Notes: a model not told the origin generated them from the letters alone. Positions 759 to 61,017 are shown, counted from the stretch's first letter. The stretch is DNA of 64,000 bases from Escherichia coli (GCF_003790525.1 NZ_CP033635.1); one strand, 5' to 3'. Made by a program: numbers and translations.

Positions 759-1043
<285 letters not shown>

Positions 1044-1069
1044 TTGCCAATTTGCTGAAGCTTTGTGAA

Positions 1070-1095
1070 AAAGCCCGCGCAAGCGGGTTTTTTTA
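1070..1095 (+). terminator. rpsT intrinsic terminator
   Basis: GC stem cccgc(gcaa)gcggg followed by a run of 7 T immediately after the rpsT stop. Confidence 0.7.
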
Positions 1096-1450
1096 TGCCT
1101 GCACGCCTGGAAATTTCAAATGAAAGGCATATCTCTTTTACTTATTTCTGCCGCCATATATTTCCCCAAGTATAAAACATTTAACATTTCATCATAAAAG
1201 TTAAAATGTTTTATTCTCTGATAAAACGTGAACTGCATAACAAAATACAGAGAAACAAAGCCAAAAACGAATTAACGCAAACTTAAAACGAAAAATTATA
1301 ATTGTCGCCATCACTCTCCTTAACTAACCTCATTCCCACAACGTTGTTTAAATCATTAATAAATATGCATTAAGGAAAGTCAGTATGTATTTGCTTAGAA
1401 AATAAAAGCTTTTTTTCTGAGACAGGCATTCTTGTTCTGGAGAGAATATA

Positions 1451-2824
1451 ATGAGTTCCGTCATTGAAACTACTCAATCAACTTCATCCGATTCCTTACC
1501 TTTAATACAGCGGATTAGCTACGGCTCACTGGATGTTGCCGGTAATCTGCTCTACTGTTTTGGCTCTACCTACATTCTTTATTTCTACACCGACGTAGCA
1601 GGGATTAGTCTGGCGGTTGCAGGCATAATCCTACTGCTGGCGCGCATTGTAGACGGTATTGATGCGCCAGTGTGGGGAATCATTATCGATAAAACCCATT
1701 CGCGTTATGGAAAATGCCGTCCATGGTTTTTATGGTTACCATTACCTTTTGCTGTATTTAGTGCGCTTTCTTTCTGGTCACCCGATATCAGCATGACAGG
1801 GAAAGCTGTTTATGCAGCAATATCGTACATGTTAGCCAGCATTCTGTTCACTGGGTTGAATACACCATTAAGCGCTATATTACCGCTGATGACGCTGTCA
1901 CCAAAGGAACGCCTGGTATTAAACTCATATCGCATGACTGGTGGGCAAATTGGCGTACTATTAATGAATGCGACAGCATTGCCATTGGTCGCTTTCCTTG
2001 GTAATGGTAACGATAAAGCAGGCTTTATATATACTGCCATAGTCTTTGCCGTAATATCCTGTGCCTTAACGTTGTTTGCCTTTAAAAATATTCGCGAACT
2101 GGATACCGATAAAATACAGCAAGAACCACGACTGCCGATGAAAAAGAGTTTTTCGGCAATGAAAGGGAACTGGCCGTGGCTCCTGATGGTAGTGGCGAAC
2201 CTTATCTTCTGGATTGCCCTACAGCAGCGCAACACTACTATTGTTTACTATTTAACCTACAATCTGGATCGCAAAGATCTGGTCCCGCTGGTTAACAGCC
2301 TCGCCACCATTCAGATCCTGTTTATCATTGCCATTCCGTTCTTCAGTCGCTATCTCACCAAAACCTGGATTTGGATTACCGGGCTGCTGGTTGCGATGTT
2401 AGGCGGGGGCCTCATGTGGCTGGCTGCCGACAGCATCCCTTTGATGATCGCCGCCTGGGTACTCGCCAATATCGGCAGCGGTATCGCCTGTTCTATGCCT
2501 TTCGCGATGCTCGGTTTCGCCGTTGACTTTGGTCGCTGGAAAACCGGCATTAAAGCTACCGGCATTCTGATCGCCTTCGGCAGCACCTTCTGCATCAAGA
2601 TGGGCAGTGGTATCGGTACAGCTTTCGCTGCCTTTATTATGGACAGCTTTGGTTATATCCCCAACCAACAACAGACGGCTGCGGGGTTGGAAGGTATCAG
2701 CCTGGCATTTATCTGGGTCCCTGCGCTGCTCTTTGCTCTCGCGGCTGTACCACTGCTCTTCTTTCGCCAGTATGAAGCGATGGAAGGTCGTATCCAACAC
2801 GATCTGCAAGCCCACAATCGTTGA
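1451..2824 (+). CDS. GPH-family (glycoside-pentoside-hexuronide:cation symporter, MelB/YicJ-like) MFS transporter, 457 aa
   Basis: ATG with upstream GGAGAG; highly hydrophobic multi-span protein; GPH-type motif DGIDAPVWGIIIDKTHSRYGKCRPW in loop 2-3; not present at this position in K-12. Confidence 0.85.
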   Translation: MSSVIETTQSTSSDSLPLIQRISYGSLDVAGNLLYCFGSTYILYFYTDVAGISLAVAGIILLLARIVDGIDAPVWGIIIDKTHSRYGKCRPWFLWLPLPFAVFSALSFWSPDISMTGKAVYAAISYMLASILFTGLNTPLSAILPLMTLSPKERLVLNSYRMTGGQIGVLLMNATALPLVAFLGNGNDKAGFIYTAIVFAVISCALTLFAFKNIRELDTDKIQQEPRLPMKKSFSAMKGNWPWLLMVVANLIFWIALQQRNTTIVYYLTYNLDRKDLVPLVNSLATIQILFIIAIPFFSRYLTKTWIWITGLLVAMLGGGLMWLAADSIPLMIAAWVLANIGSGIACSMPFAMLGFAVDFGRWKTGIKATGILIAFGSTFCIKMGSGIGTAFAAFIMDSFGYIPNQQQTAAGLEGISLAFIWVPALLFALAAVPLLFFRQYEAMEGRIQHDLQAHNR

Positions 2825-2863
2825 ATTTAATCAACATGCCACTTGCTCCTGGGAGGAACAATT

Positions 2864-4903
2864 ATGTCGTTTATTAAGCAAGATCCCCACCGTCTGGTCT
2901 GGCAACAAGACGATCGTTATCTCTGGATTGAAGCCTGGGGCGAAAACAGCTTACGCGTGCGAAGCGGCCGCCATTTACCGGTAATGCGCAATGAAAACTG
3001 GGCGTTAACTCAGGATCCTGGCGATGCTGTCGCTCATATCACCTGGGATGAAAAACAGGCAACGCTGAGAAATGGTAAAATCACTGCCATCGTAAATCTT
3101 CAGGGCCAGCTCTCTTTCTGGCGTAATGATGATAAATGCCTGCTGCAAGAGTTCTGGCGTCAACGTGGCGAAATTGGTGAAGATGAGTCAGCACACGGCC
3201 AATATGTGAGCGCTCTTAATCTACAGGCCCGTGAATTCAAGCCTATTCCTGGCGGGAAATTTACGATTAAGGCACGATTTGAAGCCAACGATGGCGAGAA
3301 ACTCTTTGGCATGGGTCAGTATCAGCAACCAAACCTGGATTTAAAAGGTTGCATGCTGGAGCTGGCACAACGTAACTCGCAGGCTTCTGTTCCCTTCCTG
3401 CTATCAAATCAGGGTTATGGTTTTCTGTGGAATAACCCAGCAATTGGCCGCGTCACCTTCGCGCAAAACGGTACGGAATGGGTAGCAGAAGTCAGTGAAC
3501 AACTGGACTACTGGATCACTGCGGGCGATACTCCGGCTGAGATCAGTGAAGCCTATGCACGAGTAACCGGTACGCCACCGATGATGCCTGATTACGCAAT
3601 GGGGTTCTGGCAATGCAAGCTTCGCTATCGTAATCAACAAGAATTGTTAGAAGTCGCACGCGGCTACAAGCAACGCAATCTTCCGATCTCGGTGATTGTC
3701 ATCGATTTCTTCCATTGGCCGAATCAGGGTGACTGGATGTTCGATCTGCGTGACTGGCCCGATCCCGATGCGATGATCGCCGAATTAAAAGAAATGGGTA
3801 TCGAACTGATGGTTTCATTCTGGCCTACCGTAGATAACCGTACCGAGAGTTATCGGGAGATGAAAGAAAACGGCTGGCTAGTCCACACCGAGCGTGGTTT
3901 GCCTATCAATATGGATTTCCTTGGCAACACCACGTTCTTTGATGCGACACATCCTGGCGCACGGGAATATGTCTGGAACAAAGCCAAACGCAATTATTAC
4001 GATAAAGGCGTGAAACTGTTCTGGCTGGATGAAGCCGAGCCAGAGTTCGGTGTTTACGATTATGACAACTATCGTTACTACGCAGGGCCAGTGCTGGAAG
4101 TCGGTAATATCTATCCGCGTATGTACGCCAAAACGTTCTTCGATGGCATGCAGGCAGCCGGAGAAAAGCAGGTGATCAATTTGCTACGCTGCGCCTGGGC
4201 CGGTAGTCAGAAATATGGTGCCCTGGTGTGGTCAGGCGATATCCACTCCTCCTTCCGTTCTCTGCGCAATCAGTTTGCTGCGGGGCTGAACATGGGAATT
4301 GCCGGGATCCCGTGGTGGACGACGGATATTGGCGGTTTCCACGGTGGCAACATACATGATCCAAAATTTCATGAACTGCTTATTCGCTGGTTCCAGTGGG
4401 GGGTATTCAGCCCAGTAATGCGTTTACATGGCAACCGCGACCCGCAAGTTTTGCCTGAACAACCCTATCGTGATGGCATCGCACAATGTCCGACTGGCGC
4501 GCCGAATGAAGTCTGGAGCTATGGTGAAGAAACCGGTGAAATTCTCACTTCCTGCCTGCAGTTGCGTGAGAAGCTGAAACCTTATATCAGTAAAATTATG
4601 GCTGAGACGCACGAGAAGAACAGCCCGGTAATGCGCACGATGTTCTTTGAGTTTCCAGACCAGGCAGAAAGCTGGAATATTTATGATCAGTACTGCTTTG
4701 GCCCGGACCTTCTCGTTGCCCCTGTAATGCACGAAGGTACACGTTCACGTGATGTCTGGTTGCCTGCCGGAGAGACATGGATCGATTTTTATACCCATGA
4801 ACACTACGCGGGTGGGCAAAAGCTTCATCATTGCGCGCCGCTGCACCAGATACCGGTATTCATTCGTGAGAAAGGGAAATATCGCCAGTTATTACCCGTT
4901 TAA
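2864..4903 (+). CDS. Glycoside hydrolase family 31 alpha-glycosidase (YicI/YihQ-like), ~679 aa
   Basis: ORF track begins at TTG 2843, but ATG 2864 has a GGGAGG Shine-Dalgarno 7 nt upstream; GH31 motifs FWLDEAEPE (candidate nucleophile Asp) and WSGDIHS (candidate acid/base Asp); 19 bp after the transporter stop, so likely one operon. Confidence 0.85.
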   Translation: MSFIKQDPHRLVWQQDDRYLWIEAWGENSLRVRSGRHLPVMRNENWALTQDPGDAVAHITWDEKQATLRNGKITAIVNLQGQLSFWRNDDKCLLQEFWRQRGEIGEDESAHGQYVSALNLQAREFKPIPGGKFTIKARFEANDGEKLFGMGQYQQPNLDLKGCMLELAQRNSQASVPFLLSNQGYGFLWNNPAIGRVTFAQNGTEWVAEVSEQLDYWITAGDTPAEISEAYARVTGTPPMMPDYAMGFWQCKLRYRNQQELLEVARGYKQRNLPISVIVIDFFHWPNQGDWMFDLRDWPDPDAMIAELKEMGIELMVSFWPTVDNRTESYREMKENGWLVHTERGLPINMDFLGNTTFFDATHPGAREYVWNKAKRNYYDKGVKLFWLDEAEPEFGVYDYDNYRYYAGPVLEVGNIYPRMYAKTFFDGMQAAGEKQVINLLRCAWAGSQKYGALVWSGDIHSSFRSLRNQFAAGLNMGIAGIPWWTTDIGGFHGGNIHDPKFHELLIRWFQWGVFSPVMRLHGNRDPQVLPEQPYRDGIAQCPTGAPNEVWSYGEETGEILTSCLQLREKLKPYISKIMAETHEKNSPVMRTMFFEFPDQAESWNIYDQYCFGPDLLVAPVMHEGTRSRDVWLPAGETWIDFYTHEHYAGGQKLHHCAPLHQIPVFIREKGKYRQLLPV

Positions 4904-4924
4904 AGGACATCGTTTGTTCATTAG

Positions 4925-4949
4925 CACGCCCCGTATATAGCGGGGCGTG
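4925..4949. terminator. Perfect 9-bp stem-loop (cacgccccg / cggggcgtg) between the convergent GH31 and nhaR genes
   Basis: Seen directly; short T tract follows on the + strand. Confidence 0.4.
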
Positions 4950-4960
4950 AGTTTTAATAT

Positions 4961-5866
4961 CTATCGTGAGGCGGGAGAAAACAACGAAGAATAATCCGTA
5001 TTGCAGATTCGCTGTACCGCCGGGTGCTGAATCATCCGCTCAGCAAAAATAGCATGGTACTCTTCCATCACATTTTCGACGCGACCAATTTCTACGACAG
5101 TTTTATCGGCATAAAAGTCATATGCATAAAGCGTTGGGGCAACGAAGATTGCATTGTGCATCGCACCAAAAGCTTTCATCAACGCGGCATCATCAAACTC
5201 GCCGAGGATTTCTACGTTTAATCCCTGGGAGTTAAACCAGTTAAGCAATTTGCGCCCTAACATTGAACGTCGCCCAGGAATCAAAAGCCGCCGTTCTTCC
5301 AGACAAGCCGGGAACGGTTTTTCCGGTGGTGGATTTGTACACCAGAAACTCACGCCACATTCGCCAATTCTCACGGAGAACAGACCTTCCTGCTGCGTAG
5401 AATCTATCGGACAGTCGGAAATGATCATATCCAGTTTATGCTGACTTAATTGCTCCAGCAGCATTTCGTGGGTGGATTCGAAGCAGCGAAGATGAATCGG
5501 CTCGCCTTCTACCACTGCGGCGTTAAGTACGCTACTGACCAGGCGTTTAGAAAGTGCATCAGCCACGCCAACGTCAAACAATAAATTGGATTCTTTGCGA
5601 TAGTTCACGATATCCAGCATTTCCTGGCTTAAGGTGAACATTTTATCGGCATAGCGATAGACCAGCTCTCCCAGCTCGCTGGGCTCGAGGCCACGTCCCT
5701 TGCGCTTAAATAATTTGCCTTGCAGGCGCTCTTCCAGCGCCCGAATCTGTCCGGTAATGGTTTGTGGTGTTAAATAAAGCGCCTCCGCTGCGCCAACCAC
5801 GGAACCTTCTTTATAGACATGCCAGAAGTAATACAAGTGGTTGTAATTGATATGAGACATGCTCAT
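4961..5866 (-). CDS. nhaR: LysR-family transcriptional activator NhaR
   Basis: Translation from [41 protein letters not shown]...; 301 aa as in K-12 (ORF track extends 6 codons upstream). Confidence 0.93.
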
Positions 5867-7343: not shown

Positions 7344-8588
7344 CTATAGCTGTTTATTCCAGAGATGCTTGAAAATATCTAATGTGGAGACAACATTGGC
7401 AGGCGACATTCGGTTTAATGAGGATAGAAAGGGATGAGACTCCAGGAAGTTGATAAAACGAGTCGCGCTTGCTAACGTCGAATACCGCATTTCATTTGCT
7501 TTCTTGTTTCCTGTAAGGTTACAAACAGCCATTGAATAATCACGGGCGGAAAATGTACGCCAAACATTATTTCTCACGCCACCACTCAAAAACAACCGCG
7601 GCGGCGTATCATAATGAGTCGTTTTCTCGCCGCGTTCTTTCACAAATGAAATATGGCACCGGCCTTGATGAATATGCTGTAAATTAGCCATCAGACAACC
7701 ACCTAATATAAAGCACTCGTGATCAAGGTAGTGTTGAATATTTATAGAATATGCTTCAGTCAGTGCTCTAACCAGTTCAAAATGGCGATACGCCGGAAGA
7801 ACCGGTTTCACCAACATCCCCGGATCGTTTTGATGTAATATCGCCCGACCATAATCAATATCAAATAAGGTATCACGCCGCATAGTAAGTAACTCCTTGC
7901 GTTGTACGTGATGCGCCAGTGTACCTGGAGACAAACGCTCTTCATAACTTGATGCATATTGATAATGCGACTCTACCGCTGATGGAGAATAATTTGTTGA
8001 AATAGCGACGACTCTACCGCTTTGTTCTTCTGCGGTAACAAGGCTATAAAGATAGTTATTACTACCGTTAAACTTTACGCGAAAAGCGCGGGTAGATAGA
8101 GAAATATCAGAAGCAGAAGAGTATTGGTAACTTTCTTTATAGTTTACTTCCCGGGCTAGTTTCATCAACTCACGGTTAAGCCCTGTGCTATTAAGAAGTA
8201 ATAATTTACGGATATCTGCAAGTGAAGCGCCTTGATCAATCATCAATGCTAAATGTGTTCTTCGCGGCGTTGTATTTACATGATCCAGAGTGATAAAAGT
8301 TCTGGAACAATGATGACAATACATTCTCCTCTGCCCCTGAGCTGAATAGCCATACTTTTTCAGAGATGTGCTTCCGCAAGCTGAACATTGTGGAACCAAC
8401 CCTCTCCATGAATGATTAACACGATTACGATAAATATTAAGAGATCGTTCAGATATCACAGGAAACAAGTAACCGCATTCCCGACATAAAATATTTTTTC
8501 CTTGTGCAATATAATCCTGGCTATTCAACAACCCCAGGTTTTTGCATCCTGGTGTTTTGCAACAATCAACATTTACGTTGGTAAACAT
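7344..8588 (-). CDS. Uncharacterised Cys-rich protein with two predicted CxxC...CxxC zinc-ribbon modules (InsA-like), ~414 aa
   Basis: ORF track starts at 8624, but the ATG at 8588 (MFTNVNV) has AGGGAG 6 nt upstream; motifs CKTPGC...CRECG and CSACGSTSLKKYGYSAQGQRRMYCHHCSRTF; C-terminal ~300 aa with no motif I recognise. Confidence 0.7.
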   Translation of the reverse strand: MFTNVNVDCCKTPGCKNLGLLNSQDYIAQGKNILCRECGYLFPVISERSLNIYRNRVNHSWRGLVPQCSACGSTSLKKYGYSAQGQRRMYCHHCSRTFITLDHVNTTPRRTHLALMIDQGASLADIRKLLLLNSTGLNRELMKLAREVNYKESYQYSSASDISLSTRAFRVKFNGSNNYLYSLVTAEEQSGRVVAISTNYSPSAVESHYQYASSYEERLSPGTLAHHVQRKELLTMRRDTLFDIDYGRAILHQNDPGMLVKPVLPAYRHFELVRALTEAYSINIQHYLDHECFILGGCLMANLQHIHQGRCHISFVKERGEKTTHYDTPPRLFLSGGVRNNVWRTFSARDYSMAVCNLTGNKKANEMRYSTLASATRFINFLESHPFLSSLNRMSPANVVSTLDIFKHLWNKQL

Positions 8589-8628
8589 ATTCACTCCCTG
8601 CGAATACCCGGATATTATCGTCATATGT

Positions 8629-8669
8629 CAAAGAAAAGAACCTGACTCAATGTGTAACATTGAATCAGG
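8629..8669 (-). terminator. Candidate intrinsic terminator/attenuator between the sulfatase gene and the Cys-rich gene
   Basis: 12-bp inverted repeat cctgactcaatg(tgtaa)cattgaatcagg; on the minus-strand RNA the stem is complete with one G-U pair and is followed by UUCUUUUCUUU. Confidence 0.45.
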
Positions 8670-8717
8670 CGGGCATGGCCCTGAAAGGCATACATTACAT
8701 TTATTATGGTTATCAGA

Positions 8718-10211
8718 TTAGCCCCAGGTTACCGCTTCCGGTTTATCACCTCTGGCTTTCATTAATGAATCATTATCAATATCGGCTTTATACTTTAAGA
8801 ACTTACCATACATTTGTTTTTCAATGTCTGGATTTTTACCTATCTGATTAATGGTCTCAAAACGATCGGTTTTGAGGTTGTATAGGTACTTTGGCTTATT
8901 GTTACGATCGATGATCATTTTCCAGTCACCATCACGTATCGCCCATTCGTCGGTTGGATCATCCTGGAATGGCATGTCAATTCCGAAGATTAATGGCTTT
9001 TCACGTTTTAGCGCTTTGTTCTCAAGGACAGGAACCAACGATTCGCCATCAAAAGTCCGGTCCGTCGGTAATTTGAAGTTCATCATTTTCGCCAGCGTAG
9101 GCATCCAGTCCAGACCATAAACAGGCGTATCTGAAACCATTCCCTTTGGAAGATGCTTTCCGTATTTAATAATCGCCGGAACACGGATGCCACCTTCCCA
9201 GAGATTATCCTTGCGACCACGTAATCCATCAGTTTCCCCTGCCAAATTCAGTTCATAAACTTTGCGCGCTTCACGCGTTACTGGTCCGTTATCACTGGTA
9301 AAAATAACGATGGTGTTATCTTCTTCACCCATCGCTTTGATTTTATCCAGTACTTTTCCAACCTGAGCATCCAGATAACTGATGTTGGCATAATATTCTC
9401 CTGTACCACGCCAGGGTTTATCCGCCCAGTCGCCATAAAATAAATCAGGATGCTGCTTCTGATAGTCGCTCATATATTGTGAGTACATGTCGAGGTATTT
9501 TTTGGGCGAAGCCAGGGGACTGTGCACTTCGGTAAAAGCGACATAAAGGAAGAAAGGCTTACTGTCCTTTTTGTTATCCAACCAGTTGACGACTTCCGAA
9601 CTGACATACTCACCACTCATTTTATCGGAACGTGGTGTGGGTTGCCCGTTACGCAACCAGCCCGTTGGATAGACCATGCCAAAACGGGGACGCTCCTTCG
9701 CATTATCCAGAGTAGCGTCGGTAACAAAACCCGCCGTATTAACCAGTGAGTAATCAAAGCCCATATCTTTTGCCTGCGGCTGATCGGTGCGATCGCCGCC
9801 TGCATTCAGATGCAGCTTACCCATCATGGCCGTGTCGTACCCTTGCGCTTTGAGTAGATTAGCAATCGTGAGTTCATTACGCCCTAATGCCACATCTTTT
9901 CCCGTTGGGATCCATGAGCGTATGCCGGTACGAAATGGCATCCGCCCTGTTAATAGTCCCGCCCGTGAAGGAGAACTTAAGGGGGCAGGTGCATAATAGT
10001 CGGTAAATTTGACGCCTTCCTGGGCAAGCCTGTCTATATTGGGCGTTTTAACGATCTGATGTCCATATGTTGCCAAATCACCATAGCCTAAATCATCCGC
10101 CATAATGATGACTAAATTGGGTTGTTTAGTTTCGGCGGCTACGGCTGGATTAAAAGCATTCCCTGTGCAAACTGCAAGGCCGATCAAACTGGCCATTAAT
10201 GTTTTCTGCAT
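8718..10211 (-). CDS. Secreted sulfatase (arylsulfatase family), Ser-type active-site motif SSPSR, ~497 aa
   Basis: Sulfatase signature PNLVIIMADDLGYGDL, active-site block PLSSPSRAGLLTGR (Ser at the formylglycine position), second signature GYDTAMMGKLH; N-terminal signal peptide MQKTLMASLIGLAVCTGNA; start chosen at ATG 10211 with AGGGA RBS (track ORF extends to 10247). Confidence 0.85.
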   Translation of the reverse strand: MQKTLMASLIGLAVCTGNAFNPAVAAETKQPNLVIIMADDLGYGDLATYGHQIVKTPNIDRLAQEGVKFTDYYAPAPLSSPSRAGLLTGRMPFRTGIRSWIPTGKDVALGRNELTIANLLKAQGYDTAMMGKLHLNAGGDRTDQPQAKDMGFDYSLVNTAGFVTDATLDNAKERPRFGMVYPTGWLRNGQPTPRSDKMSGEYVSSEVVNWLDNKKDSKPFFLYVAFTEVHSPLASPKKYLDMYSQYMSDYQKQHPDLFYGDWADKPWRGTGEYYANISYLDAQVGKVLDKIKAMGEEDNTIVIFTSDNGPVTREARKVYELNLAGETDGLRGRKDNLWEGGIRVPAIIKYGKHLPKGMVSDTPVYGLDWMPTLAKMMNFKLPTDRTFDGESLVPVLENKALKREKPLIFGIDMPFQDDPTDEWAIRDGDWKMIIDRNNKPKYLYNLKTDRFETINQIGKNPDIEKQMYGKFLKYKADIDNDSLMKARGDKPEAVTWG

Positions 10212-10230
10212 AATTATTCCCTGATGAAAA

Positions 10231-10992
10231 TTAGAAATCATAACCAAGCATATAAATCATTTGATCGCCAAAACCATCGTAGCCCAACTTATTATCGAAA
10301 TAACGCCACGTCACACTGGCTTTCCAGCGAGGATAGAACTTCCAGGCCACTGTTAAACCGCCATTTAGCCCATTCCGACCAAATTGTTGTTCCGCATAGG
10401 CATCATTTCTGTCCAGTTCTATTTCATTCCAGTTAGATAAAACAAATTTTTCGTCAAATAACGTAAAAGGTAATACTGCTGTCCAGCCAACAACATAACC
10501 ATTCCAGCCATTTGTTTGTCCATATTTGGCTGAGACGTAGTCTCCAGATTGATTATGTAATCCAATATACGGTTTAAAAAACCCCCATGAACCATTCCAG
10601 CCGAGGTAGCCCAAACCATAAAACATATCAAGATCGTCACCCCATGAGTTATCCCATTGACCATAGATCTTGCCAAAGAAAGTCATATTGGAGTCAAAGA
10701 GTCTGACATGTGTCATAGCAGAAACGGTATGATTACGCCCCGCTACGGCATGGTTAAGCACATTGCTTTCATAAAATGAGTAAAACTCGGCTTCTTTAAA
10801 ATTCACACCAAAGTCTGCAGTCACTTTCCATACTTCACCACGATGAGTGTTAACGAAGCCACTATTCCAGTCAGCATAACCTGCATTTATTGAGCCAAAG
10901 GAACCTTTATATTCTAATGAAGAATATGCAGGAAGGTGATAGAAAATCGTTGTCAGGGCACACGCAATAAGAAGCCGTCTTTTGGCAGACAT
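10231..10992 (-). CDS. Tsx/OmpK-like outer-membrane channel protein, 253 aa
   Basis: Signal peptide MSAKRRLLIACALTTIFYHLPAYS, Trp/Tyr/Gly-rich beta-barrel-like sequence, C-terminal Phe; WDNSWGDDLD block resembles Tsx; GGAGAG RBS; ends 19 bp upstream of the sulfatase start. Confidence 0.7.
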   Translation of the reverse strand: MSAKRRLLIACALTTIFYHLPAYSSLEYKGSFGSINAGYADWNSGFVNTHRGEVWKVTADFGVNFKEAEFYSFYESNVLNHAVAGRNHTVSAMTHVRLFDSNMTFFGKIYGQWDNSWGDDLDMFYGLGYLGWNGSWGFFKPYIGLHNQSGDYVSAKYGQTNGWNGYVVGWTAVLPFTLFDEKFVLSNWNEIELDRNDAYAEQQFGRNGLNGGLTVAWKFYPRWKASVTWRYFDNKLGYDGFGDQMIYMLGYDF

Positions 10993-11499
10993 ATAATATG
11001 CTCTCCATTCATTTTTTTTATGGTTCCATAGAAATCAATACATCAGATAATTCATTTTGATTAAGAACGACTCAGAAAGTATATTTAAAGGTGAATGGCA
11101 AAGCGTGATGGAGATCGCAGATTACTTTTACCCCCGGGTGTGGAGGTATCGTGTTTCAAAAAGTGTGTCGATTTTAAATATCACTCATTGATTTATAAAC
11201 ATTTTTCCTCACAAAAAGAAAATTCAATTCTGTACAAGAATATTTTGTATCTTCTATTACTTTCTCCAGTAATAACTCACCATTCAGGCATAACTTAAAC
11301 CTCTTGTTCATAATCTCAACTTTTGTAAATGAAAACGCACATAAGAGTTAAAATAAACAATGTACTAAAGATTGATTACGCAAAAATGCGAGGCGTCTTC
11401 AGGATTAGAATCGATAAAACAGAATGGGTTAAAGAGAGCGATATAATAGCGGCGGGTGCTTGAGGCTGTCTGTCTCAGGCATTAGCTGAACGGCAGATA

Positions 11500-11560
11500 G
11501 AGAAAAGCCCCGAGTGATATTTTACCATCAACCCGAGGCCCCCTATATGCAGAACACATG
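11500..11560 (-). ncRNA. sokC: sokC antisense RNA of the hokC/mokC type I toxin-antitoxin locus (approximate position)
   Basis: Placed by analogy with K-12, where sokC is antisense to the mokC start; not independently verified from the sequence. Confidence 0.35.
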
Positions 11561-11756
11561 TAGAGTGCCTCTTACTGACCGTAAGGTCAAGGAGAAGAGA
11601 GCAATGAAGCAGCATAAGGCGATGATTGTCGCCCTGATCGTCATCTGTATCACCGCCGTAGTGGCGGCGCTGGTAACGAGAAAAGACCTCTGTGAGGTTC
11701 ACATCCGAACTGGCCAGACGGAGGTTGCTGTTTTCACGGCTTACGAATCCGAGTAA
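11547..11756 (+). CDS. mokC: mokC, overlapping reading frame that couples hokC translation (69 aa)
   Basis: In-frame upstream ATG giving MQNTCRVPLTDRKVKEKRA fused to the HokC sequence. Confidence 0.6.
   Translation: MQNTCRVPLTDRKVKEKRAMKQHKAMIVALIVICITAVVAALVTRKDLCEVHIRTGQTEVAVFTAYESE
11604..11756 (+). CDS. hokC: Hok/Gef-family small membrane toxin HokC (50 aa)
   Basis: Translation MKQHKAMIVALIVICITAVVAALVTRKDLCEVHIRTGQTEVAVFTAYESE; 3' hairpin ggcgggg(agtgat)ccccgcc at 11764-11783. Confidence 0.85.
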   Translation: MKQHKAMIVALIVICITAVVAALVTRKDLCEVHIRTGQTEVAVFTAYESE

Positions 11757-26732: not shown

Positions 26733-26770
26733 AAAAAAAAAGCCCGCACTGTCAGGTGCGGGCTTTTTTC
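26733..26770 (-). terminator. thr operon attenuator terminator
   Basis: Minus strand: agcccgcacctgacagtgcgggct hairpin followed by 8 U, between thrL and thrA. Confidence 0.8.
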
Positions 26771-26787
26771 TGTGTTTCCTGTACGCG

Positions 26788-26856
<69 letters not shown>

Positions 26857-39696: not shown

Positions 39697-39850
39697 ATGC
39701 CGGGTGCGGCGTGAACGCCTTATCCGGCCTACAAACCAAGAAATTTCAATACGTTGTGAATCTCCAGGCCTGATAAGACGCGGTAAGCGTCGCATCAGGC
39801 ATTGAGCACCGAATGCGGGATGCGGCGTGAACACCTTTTCCGGTCTACAA
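39697..39850. repeat. REP/BIME cluster (three REP-like palindromic units)
   Basis: Units of the form gccggatgcggcgtgaacgccttatccggcctaca in alternating orientation after the ettA stop. Confidence 0.7.
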
Positions 39851-60407: not shown

Positions 60408-60575
<168 letters not shown>

Positions 60576-60695: not shown

Positions 60696-60781
60696 GCGAA
60701 GGTGGCGGAATTGGTAGACGCGCTAGCTTCAGGTGTTAGTGTCCTTACGGACGTGGGGGTTCAAGTCCCCCCCTCGCACCA
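60696..60781 (+). tRNA. leuQ: tRNA-Leu(CAG), copy 1 (leuQ position); 86 nt, one C shorter than copies 2 and 3
   Basis: GCGAAGGTGGCGGAATTGGTAGACGCGCTAGCTTCAGGTGTTAGTGTCCTTACGGACGTGGGGGTTCAAGTCCCCCCCTCGCACCA; 7 C after TCAAGT instead of 8. Confidence 0.85.
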
Positions 60782-60809
60782 AAAACCACGTTGATATTGC
60801 TCGCACTGG

Positions 60810-60896
60810 GCGAAGGTGGCGGAATTGGTAGACGCGCTAGCTTCAGGTGTTAGTGTTCTTACGGACGTGGGGGTTCAAGTCCCCCCCCTCGCACCA
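60810..60896 (+). tRNA. leuP: tRNA-Leu(CAG), copy 2 (leuP position); variable-arm C to T change
   Basis: 87-nt tRNA ending CACCA; GTGTTCTT in the variable arm where copies 1 and 3 have GTGTCCTT. Confidence 0.9.
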
Positions 60897-60930
60897 AACG
60901 AGGCGATATCAAAAAAAGTAAGATGACTGT

Positions 60931-61017
60931 GCGAAGGTGGCGGAATTGGTAGACGCGCTAGCTTCAGGTGTTAGTGTCCTTACGGACGTGGGGGTTCAAG
61001 TCCCCCCCCTCGCACCA
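60931..61017 (+). tRNA. leuV: tRNA-Leu(CAG), copy 3 (leuV position)
   Basis: 87-nt tRNA-Leu sequence with a long variable arm and encoded CCA. Confidence 0.9.

Follow-up and report, generated by a model that had tools for sequence, protein, structure and literature searches.

A predicted alpha-xyloside symporter-hydrolase operon as one of three states of the rpsT-nhaR gap in Escherichia coli

Within a 64,000-nucleotide stretch of Escherichia coli DNA (GCF_003790525.1, NZ_CP033635.1; one strand, 5' to 3', referred to here as the window), the gap between rpsT and nhaR was found to carry a gene for a GPH-family sugar:cation symporter followed by a gene for a glycoside hydrolase of family GH31. 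We consider it likely, with a probability of roughly 0.75, that the two genes make up a self-contained operon for the catabolism of a small alpha-D-xyloside, ancestral in the gap and since lost from most E. coli. Generic annotations of the genes exist, and their orthologs are common in Salmonella. The operon would represent a second, evolutionarily independent alpha-xyloside system in the accessory metabolism of E. coli, concentrated in the pandemic sequence type 131 (ST131) lineage and in phylogroup F and shared with Salmonella.

Gene content of the rpsT-nhaR gap

An earlier reading of the window (the sequence-only reading) had proposed a GPH symporter gene and a GH31 gene as a two-gene unit between the rpsT terminator and the nhaR stop codon, and both the open reading frames and the hidden Markov model and Pfam matches agreed with this. 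In strains 702/18 and SMS-3-5, RefSeq labels identical DNA as "MFS transporter" and "glycoside hydrolase family 31 protein." The features of the locus are as follows.

1451 to 2824, plus strand: GPH-family (Transporter Classification 2.A.2) sugar:cation symporter of 457 amino acids, matching TIGR00792; Shine-Dalgarno sequence GGAG at 1439-1442
2864 to 4903, plus strand: GH31 (subfamily 4, MeXyl31-type) putative alpha-xylosidase (EC 3.2.1.177) of 679 amino acids, predicted cytoplasmic; Shine-Dalgarno sequence GGGAGG at 2851-2856; nucleophile D389, acid/base D459
1096 to 1450, plus strand: non-coding, AT-rich leader of 355 bp, 31% guanine plus cytosine (GC)
4925 to 4949, plus strand: terminator hairpin CACGCCCCG-TATATAG-CGGGGCGTG followed by AGTTTTAATA, from repeat and terminator scans
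1103 to 4970, no strand: strain-variable segment with the entire cassette, lacking homology to K-12, O157:H7 and CFT073 at this place
780 to 1043, plus strand: rpsT, from the sequence
1068 to 1095, plus strand: intrinsic terminator of rpsT, AAAAAGCCCGCGCAAGCGGGTTTTTTT, the left edge of the conserved flank, from the sequence, an eight-taxon alignment and BLAST breakpoints
4961 to 5866, minus strand: nhaR, stop codon at 4961, the conserved right flank outside the cassette, with end codons that vary with the state of the locus

The two genes lie on the same strand, the GH31 gene has a conserved Shine-Dalgarno sequence and ATG, and a single terminator-like hairpin follows the GH31 gene, an arrangement consistent with co-transcription. 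The GH31 gene had been thought to start 19 bp downstream of the symporter gene; the conserved start proved instead to be ATG 2864, 39 nucleotides after the symporter stop codon, which is kept with its GGAGG Shine-Dalgarno sequence in all eight aligned taxa and is also the RefSeq start. A TTG at 2843 was rejected as the start, as it is not conserved, not even in ST131. The hairpin was found exactly as the sequence-only reading had described it, with a perfect 9-bp inverted repeat (4925-4933 and 4941-4949) enclosing a 7-nucleotide loop, and because it is located 11 nucleotides from the convergent nhaR stop codon, it probably ends both the operon and the nhaR transcripts.

A survey of the open reading frames in the gap gave no regulator-coding gene between rpsT and nhaR, in keeping with what had been claimed. 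None of the marks of a genomic island or mobile element that were looked for (integrase or transposase open reading frames, flanking direct repeats or a tRNA target) was found at 1040-1460 or 4880-4980, and the GC content of the cassette, 48 to 50% compared with 51% for the window, showed no compositional anomaly.

The hydrolase belongs to the MeXyl31-type clade of GH31

Database proteins 100% identical to the hydrolase (P0001 and P0002) carry precomputed matches to Pfam families PF13802, PF01055 and PF21365, identifying it as a GH31 protein. Its best relative in the PDB was MeXyl31 (5ZN6), which scored 1035 bits at 64% identity across 664 aligned residues. GH31_4 alpha-xylosidases from A. niger, X. 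citri, B. ovatus and C. japonicus came next at 286 to 335 bits; the match to YicI reached 166 bits (25% identity) and that to YihQ (5AED) about 109 bits. Neither this last score nor the neighboring genes, rpsT and nhaR, pointed to a sulfoquinovosidase of the YihQ type. The earlier proposal that the pair takes up and hydrolyzes one alpha-glycoside was thus supported by homology and could be sharpened to the MeXyl31/GH31_4 alpha-xylosidase clade, the substrate class being predicted from the 64% identity to MeXyl31. MalZ, which the earlier note had grouped with these enzymes, is not a GH31 enzyme.

The catalytic residues of the hydrolase are intact. D389, in the motif FWLDEAEPE, and D459, in VWSGD, align by motif with D416 and D482 of YicI and were invariant in 120 of 120 homologs. 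The segment D281-F/Y282-F283 aligns with D306-C307-F308 of YicI and was likewise invariant in the 120 homologs; in the YicI work of Okuyama (2006), the bulky hydrophobic residues C307 and F308 after the conserved Asp reportedly shut out the C6 hydroxymethyl group. The N terminus, MSFIKQDPHRL, has no signal peptide as judged by eye, and the enzyme is therefore predicted to be cytoplasmic and dependent on the symporter for its supply of substrate. In a 2023 paper from the group that characterized MeXyl31 (PMC10792220), this enzyme is described as a member of GH31_4 that is specific for p-nitrophenyl-alpha-D-xylopyranoside.

The genomic context of homologs was surveyed at the best 80 of 597 matches from a scan of one genome per species. 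Homologs of about 60% identity in gut Firmicutes (Blautia, Lachnospiraceae) usually adjoin a sugar ABC transporter and a YesM/YesN-like two-component system, and homologs in Sphingomonas adjoin a GPH transporter. No companion glycosidase recurred at these 80 loci, where the recurring neighbors were limited to ABC or GPH transporters and two-component regulators resembling YesM/YesN; these contexts fit a module in which a transporter is paired with a single hydrolase and the substrate is small.

The symporter is a full-length GPH family member

The symporter scored 363.8 bits against TIGR00792 ("GPH:cation symporter," cutoff 231.35), with residues 21 to 453 covering positions 1 to 435 of the 437 in the profile. 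Residues 19 to 455 aligned to residues 5 to 445 of MelB (phmmer E value of 6E-43), an end-to-end match to the MelB structures with their 12-helix fold; the best-matching MelB PDB chain is presumably the D59C mutant. At the positions corresponding to the MelB Na+ site (D55/N58/D59), the symporter has D/D/A (RIVDGIDAP compared with RIWDAINDP, at residues ~64 to 72) and so departs from the MelB Na+ ligands. This difference bears on cation selectivity and not on membership of the GPH family, and it makes coupling to H+ rather than Na+ plausible. Identity was 28.5% to YicJ and 27% to YagG, the latter too low for a recent yagG duplicate.

Both genes are intact and under purifying selection

Comparison with homologs revealed no frameshifts or premature stop codons, and the protein lengths of 457 and 679 amino acids were identical in ST131, Citrobacter and Salmonella. 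Relative to the ST131 (EC958) allele, the window was about 87% identical at the DNA level, and the proteins were 94% (symporter) and 97% (GH31) identical. The ratio of nonsynonymous to synonymous divergence (dN/dS) between these two E. coli alleles was 0.028 for the symporter gene (dS of 1.10) and 0.038 for the GH31 gene (dS of 0.55). Both genes are therefore under strong purifying selection, which argues against a decaying remnant.

In strain 2016C-3878 (NZ_CP029747.1, 436201-441137), an otherwise identical match spans an annotated IS30-family ISApl1 transposase, a GH31 protein and a separate "TIM-barrel domain-containing protein," suggesting that the GH31 gene is split in this strain and that loss is ongoing.

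The rpsT-nhaR gap exists in three states

A total of 5,426 complete E. coli genomes were surveyed for the content of the gap. The operon was present in 639 (~12%). Of these, 73 matched the window at 99% identity or higher, and the best matches of the other 566 fell in the 80 to 90% band; nearly all rows listed in this band were at ~87.3% identity, including EC958 and strains labeled O25b:H4-ST131. K-12/O157-type flanks, nearly always at two separated places and hence with a cassette between them, were found in 4,226 genomes (~78%; the fimbrial-type state), while 558 (~10%) had the CFT073-type junction, where nhaR and rpsT are only 95 bp apart (the empty state). These three match sets add up to 5,423 of the 5,426 genomes, and the states therefore appear to be mutually exclusive. 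The gap is a clean three-state polymorphism: it contains the sugar operon, or fimbrial genes together with a gene for a type III effector, or nothing.

On the left side, BLAST homology of the window to K-12, O157 and CFT073 stopped at 1096-1102, and the right breakpoint of the variable segment fell inside the final codons of nhaR. The extent of 1096 to 4960 originally assigned to the unit agreed within 10 bp with the segment nonhomologous to K-12 (1103-4970). The C terminus of NhaR (window 4961-4975) reads ...SSLFSPASR in the operon state, ...SALFSPAVR in the fimbrial (K-12) state and ...SALFTPASK in the empty (CFT073) state. Since the end of NhaR differs with the state of the neighboring locus, the breakpoints of cassette exchange are placed inside the coding end of nhaR.

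IS1A in K-12 replaced fimbrial genes and not the sugar operon

The genes were absent from this locus in K-12, as the sequence-only reading had stated, with homology between the window and K-12 ending at window position 1102 and restarting at 4971. K-12 was also said to carry only an IS1 copy here. IS1A is indeed present between nhaR and rpsT (NC_000913.3, 19796-20563; L003 5797-6564), together with 377 bp (185 + 192 bp) of flanking sequence that is unrelated to the window and represents remnants of a fimbrial operon. These flanks are collinear with O157:H7, in which the gap is filled by a chaperone-usher fimbrial operon of four genes and the type III effector gene espX1. Without a target-site duplication, IS1A exactly substitutes for 6,506 bp of the O157:H7 segment (L084 2495-9000), comprising most of the fimbrial operon and espX1. 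The K-12 IS1A is therefore an IS1-associated later deletion inside the fimbrial/espX1 cassette. Replacement of the sugar operon by IS1 in K-12, the possibility raised with the earlier note, is ruled out by the same flanks, and the three-state picture corrects what would naturally be assumed, namely that IS1 in K-12 stands where these genes were lost.

The operon is shared with other enterobacteria and has diverged into two E. coli alleles

The gene order ileS-ribF-rpsT-GPH-GH31-nhaR-nhaA was found in Salmonella, Citrobacter rodentium, C. werkmanii, C. youngae, Citrobacter sp. FP75, C. portucalensis, Klebsiella spallanzanii and Superficieibacter electus. The Salmonella protein through which this order was seen, carried at NCBI under the name "MULTISPECIES ... 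[Salmonella]," had index entries in 19,381 blocks of the collection. The Salmonella pair is presumably STM0041/STM0042 in LT2 numbering, and we take STM0041 to be the Salmonella ortholog at this locus. Between E. coli and Salmonella, dS was 1.50 for the symporter gene and 1.55 for nhaA. Given the shared gene order and the similar dS of the symporter gene and nhaA, the operon most likely occupied the rpsT-nhaR gap ancestrally in the group of Escherichia, Salmonella and Citrobacter, and most E. coli have since had it replaced or deleted.

Two deeply diverged alleles were distinguished within E. coli, the phylogroup F/SMS-3-5 type, to which the window belongs (SMS-3-5 being, we assume, a phylogroup F strain), and the ST131 type. 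Between the window and the ST131 allele, dS was 0.78 for GH31 codons 1 to 512, 0.10 for the remainder of the GH31 gene and 0.14 for nhaR, and rpsT was identical. Identity of the GH31 gene to the ST131 allele (L002) rises from ~83% to ~97% near 3800-4400, in its 3' third (window 3800-4900), indicating a recombination mosaic within the gene. The ST131 and F alleles are either mosaic and very old, or one of them was reimported from an unsampled relative. The E. coli alleles are nevertheless each other's closest relatives, with dN of 0.02 to 0.03 compared with 0.08 to 0.12 to Citrobacter and Salmonella.

In the enterobacterial contig L092 (Logan SRR22685143, 1151-4961), the pair was found intact between chaA and kdsA together with ~260 bp of the leader, the GH31 gene being 87% identical. 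The gene pair with its leader thus behaves as a transferable unit.

The leader contains conserved blocks and candidate control elements

Alignments showed four blocks of the leader to be conserved across genera and at the alternative locus: CGTGA-N6-TAACA; AAAAACnAATTAACGCAA followed by a -10-like TATAAT; TTAACTA; and TGCTTAGAAAATAAAAGCTTTTTTTCTGAG. None of them was significant on pattern alone. The candidate elements are listed below.

1227 to 1242, plus strand: tentative CRP-like half-site pair CGTGA-N6-TAACA, GTGA being invariant across taxa, from conservation only
1272 to 1302, plus strand: candidate promoter, the conserved block TTAACGCAA and then the -10 sequence TATAAT at 1297-1302, as suggested by alignments
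1392 to 1421, plus strand: best-conserved leader element TGCTTAGAAAATAAAAGCTTTTTTTCTGAG, with the imperfect inverted repeat CTTAGAAA/TTTCTGAG, about 30 nucleotides upstream of the start codon, from alignments

At the -10 sequence, nAnAAT is kept in all aligned taxa. The 1392-1421 element is also kept where the cassette occupies the other locus (L092), and this palindrome is a reasonable candidate for the operator of an unlinked regulator. A riboswitch or other known RNA leader in 1096-1450 was rejected, as there was no Rfam match above noise and the palindrome folded no better than shuffled sequences (z of -0.65). A 24-nucleotide imperfect inverted repeat (79% complementary) was also noted at 1169-1217, upstream of the conserved blocks and not conserved in other genera.

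In the mechanism we propose, a promoter in the leader would drive both genes, probably under catabolite control, and an unlinked regulator would act on the palindrome at 1392-1421. The GPH symporter would import the alpha-xyloside together with a cation, and the GH31_4 enzyme would hydrolyze it in the cytoplasm by a retaining double displacement with D389 as the nucleophile and D459 as the acid/base, releasing xylose and the aglycone to central metabolism. The transcript would end at the 4925-4949 hairpin.

Weighing of alternative explanations

Several observations weigh against an ancestral alpha-xyloside operon. The hydrolase reached 245.7 bits against NF007940, the equivalog model for YicI-type alpha-xylosidases, which is below the cutoff of 606; it is therefore not a YicI ortholog, and its assignment as an alpha-xylosidase depends on 64% identity to one characterized enzyme. 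That enzyme, MeXyl31, is itself reported as inactive on isoprimeverose and on XXXG-type xyloglucan oligosaccharides (PMC10792220), and the physiological substrate of the MeXyl31-type clade could be a non-xyloside. Our literature search found no functional work on the E. coli or Salmonella genes, including no experiment on the E. coli proteins. In the leader, the CRP-like pattern by itself occurred at chance level (21 matches found and 25 expected in the window), and a scan for the sigma-70 consensus called nothing, the candidate promoter being missed because its spacer would be 19 nucleotides. As to ancestry, the allele dS of about 1 is well above that of the flanking rpsT, nhaR and nhaA and far exceeds typical divergence within a species, and one or both alleles may have been reacquired from an unsampled relative by recombination in the flanks.

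A rival reading would deny the cassette an ancestral place in E. coli. One or two transfers from another enterobacterium, by homologous recombination in the conserved rpsT and nhaR flanks, would have brought it in, making it a small metabolic island where recombination is frequent. The contrast between dS of 1.10 (symporter) or 0.78 (GH31 codons 1 to 512) and the flanks (rpsT identical, nhaR dS of 0.14) would fit such an import, as would the abrupt fall to 0.10 in the mosaic 3' end of the GH31 gene, the presence of the operon in EC958 and its absence from CFT073 within phylogroup B2, with flanks 97.6 to 99.3% identical, the second location in L092 and, weakly, the absence of Escherichia from the best 80 of 597 matches in the one-genome-per-species scan. 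However, the E. coli alleles are mutually closest, the synteny is identical in five genera, and neither an integrase, nor flanking repeats, nor a compositional anomaly accompanies the cassette, and we regard such an import as rather doubtful. Far less probable still is a cryptic, decaying remnant that is now neither expressed nor useful. The loss of the operon from ~88% of E. coli genomes could be read in this way, along with the ISApl1 transposase annotated within the GH31 match span of at least one genome (strain 2016C-3878), the lack of a strong promoter in the sigma-70 scan and the listing of STM0041 among genes gathering truncations in serovar Paratyphi A (PMC9241588). Against this, both reading frames are intact and full length, the catalytic residues have all been retained, and dN/dS is 0.03 to 0.04 at a dS of about 1; conservation also extends to the Shine-Dalgarno sequences and the elements of the leader.

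With respect to the substrate, the operon could be a utilization system for isoprimeverose or xyloglucan oligosaccharides, a functional duplicate of yicJ-yicI or of xylP-xylQ of Lactobacillus pentosus that acts on the products of plant xyloglucan breakdown in the gut. Its two-gene architecture is that of yicJI, xyloglucan oligosaccharides are substrates of several bacterial GH31_4 enzymes (CjXyl31A, BoGH31A and X. citri XylS), and the ~60% identical homologs of gut Firmicutes lie beside sugar ABC transporters. We nevertheless think this unlikely, in view of the reported inactivity of MeXyl31 on these compounds, the mere 25% identity to YicI and the absence, as far as the alignment shows, of the extra N-terminal part with the PA14 domain that the xyloglucan-active enzymes have (679 compared with 955 to 1,020 amino acids, the match starting at about their residues 360 to 400). 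Returning to the ancestral alpha-xyloside operon, we tentatively suggest that the MeXyl31-type clade, to which the nearly universal Salmonella ortholog and many homologs of gut Firmicutes also belong, targets an alpha-xyloside other than isoprimeverose or a xyloglucan oligosaccharide, and that the operon, under an unlinked regulator acting at 1392-1421, would then be a niche determinant that sets ST131, phylogroup F and Salmonella apart from most E. coli. Candidate substrates include an alpha-1,3-xyloside from the host or the diet and a small-molecule glycoside that is xylosylated. The main scientific weight of the locus lies in the natural substrate of this GH31_4 clade, which the genetically tractable E. 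coli and Salmonella operons would make directly accessible.

Other features of the window

A three-gene accessory block absent from K-12 lies at 7344-10992 (minus strand), between nhaA and hokC/sok (sok RNA at 11454-11606). It encodes a 426-amino-acid "IS1/IS1595 N-terminal zinc-binding domain" protein, a sulfatase and OmpK, and it is unusually divergent from ST131 (74 to 93% identical nucleotides in bins of 200 bp). The leader of the thr operon is located at 26733-26852 (minus strand) and three tRNA genes in tandem at 60696-61014 (plus strand), indicating that the window spans the conventional chromosome start in K-12 numbering. Two naRNA4 elements of the repetitive extragenic palindromic type are present at 39767-39845 and 60474-60556.

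Comparison with known systems

The sequence-only reading had likened the operon to yicJ-yicI and yihO-yihQ, and the likeness holds for the pairing of a GPH transporter with a GH31 enzyme but not for the hydrolase, which lies outside both the YicI clade (25% identity, below the NF007940 cutoff) and the YihQ clade. The yihO-yihQ genes encode a sulfoquinovoside transporter and a sulfoquinovosidase; the match to YihQ is only ~109 bits, and no sulfoglycolysis genes are near the operon. In yicJ-yicI of K-12, which encode a putative xyloside transporter and an alpha-xylosidase, the GPH gene likewise lies immediately upstream of the GH31 gene, both have the same orientation and no regulator gene adjoins them, but the identities are 28.5% (transporter) and 25% (hydrolase), and YicI, with 772 amino acids, belongs to another GH31 subfamily. 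At 25 to 28% identity, the two systems are distant paralogs, and a recent duplication of yicJI was rejected.

The xylP-xylQ genes of Lactobacillus pentosus, which Chaillou et al. (1998) are said to have described as an isoprimeverose:cation symporter and an alpha-xylosidase, follow the same logic of a GPH symporter with a cytoplasmic GH31 enzyme. Unlike the operon described here, xylPQ is under XylR control beside the xyl genes, and the substrate of the present operon may not be isoprimeverose. MeXyl31, from a soil metagenome (PDB 5ZN6/5ZN7), has the same length as the hydrolase and its domains in the same order, with 64% identity over 664 of 679 residues, and the two proteins are identical in their catalytic Asp residues and in the D-F-F-H-W motif; as 36% of the residues differ, the preference for the aglycone (+1 subsite) may differ as well. 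A further close system is the GH31/MFS pair of Salmonella enterica, which has the same locus, order, orientation and protein lengths and ~83% amino acid identity, and which is nearly universal in Salmonella, whereas the operon is found in ~12% of complete E. coli genomes.

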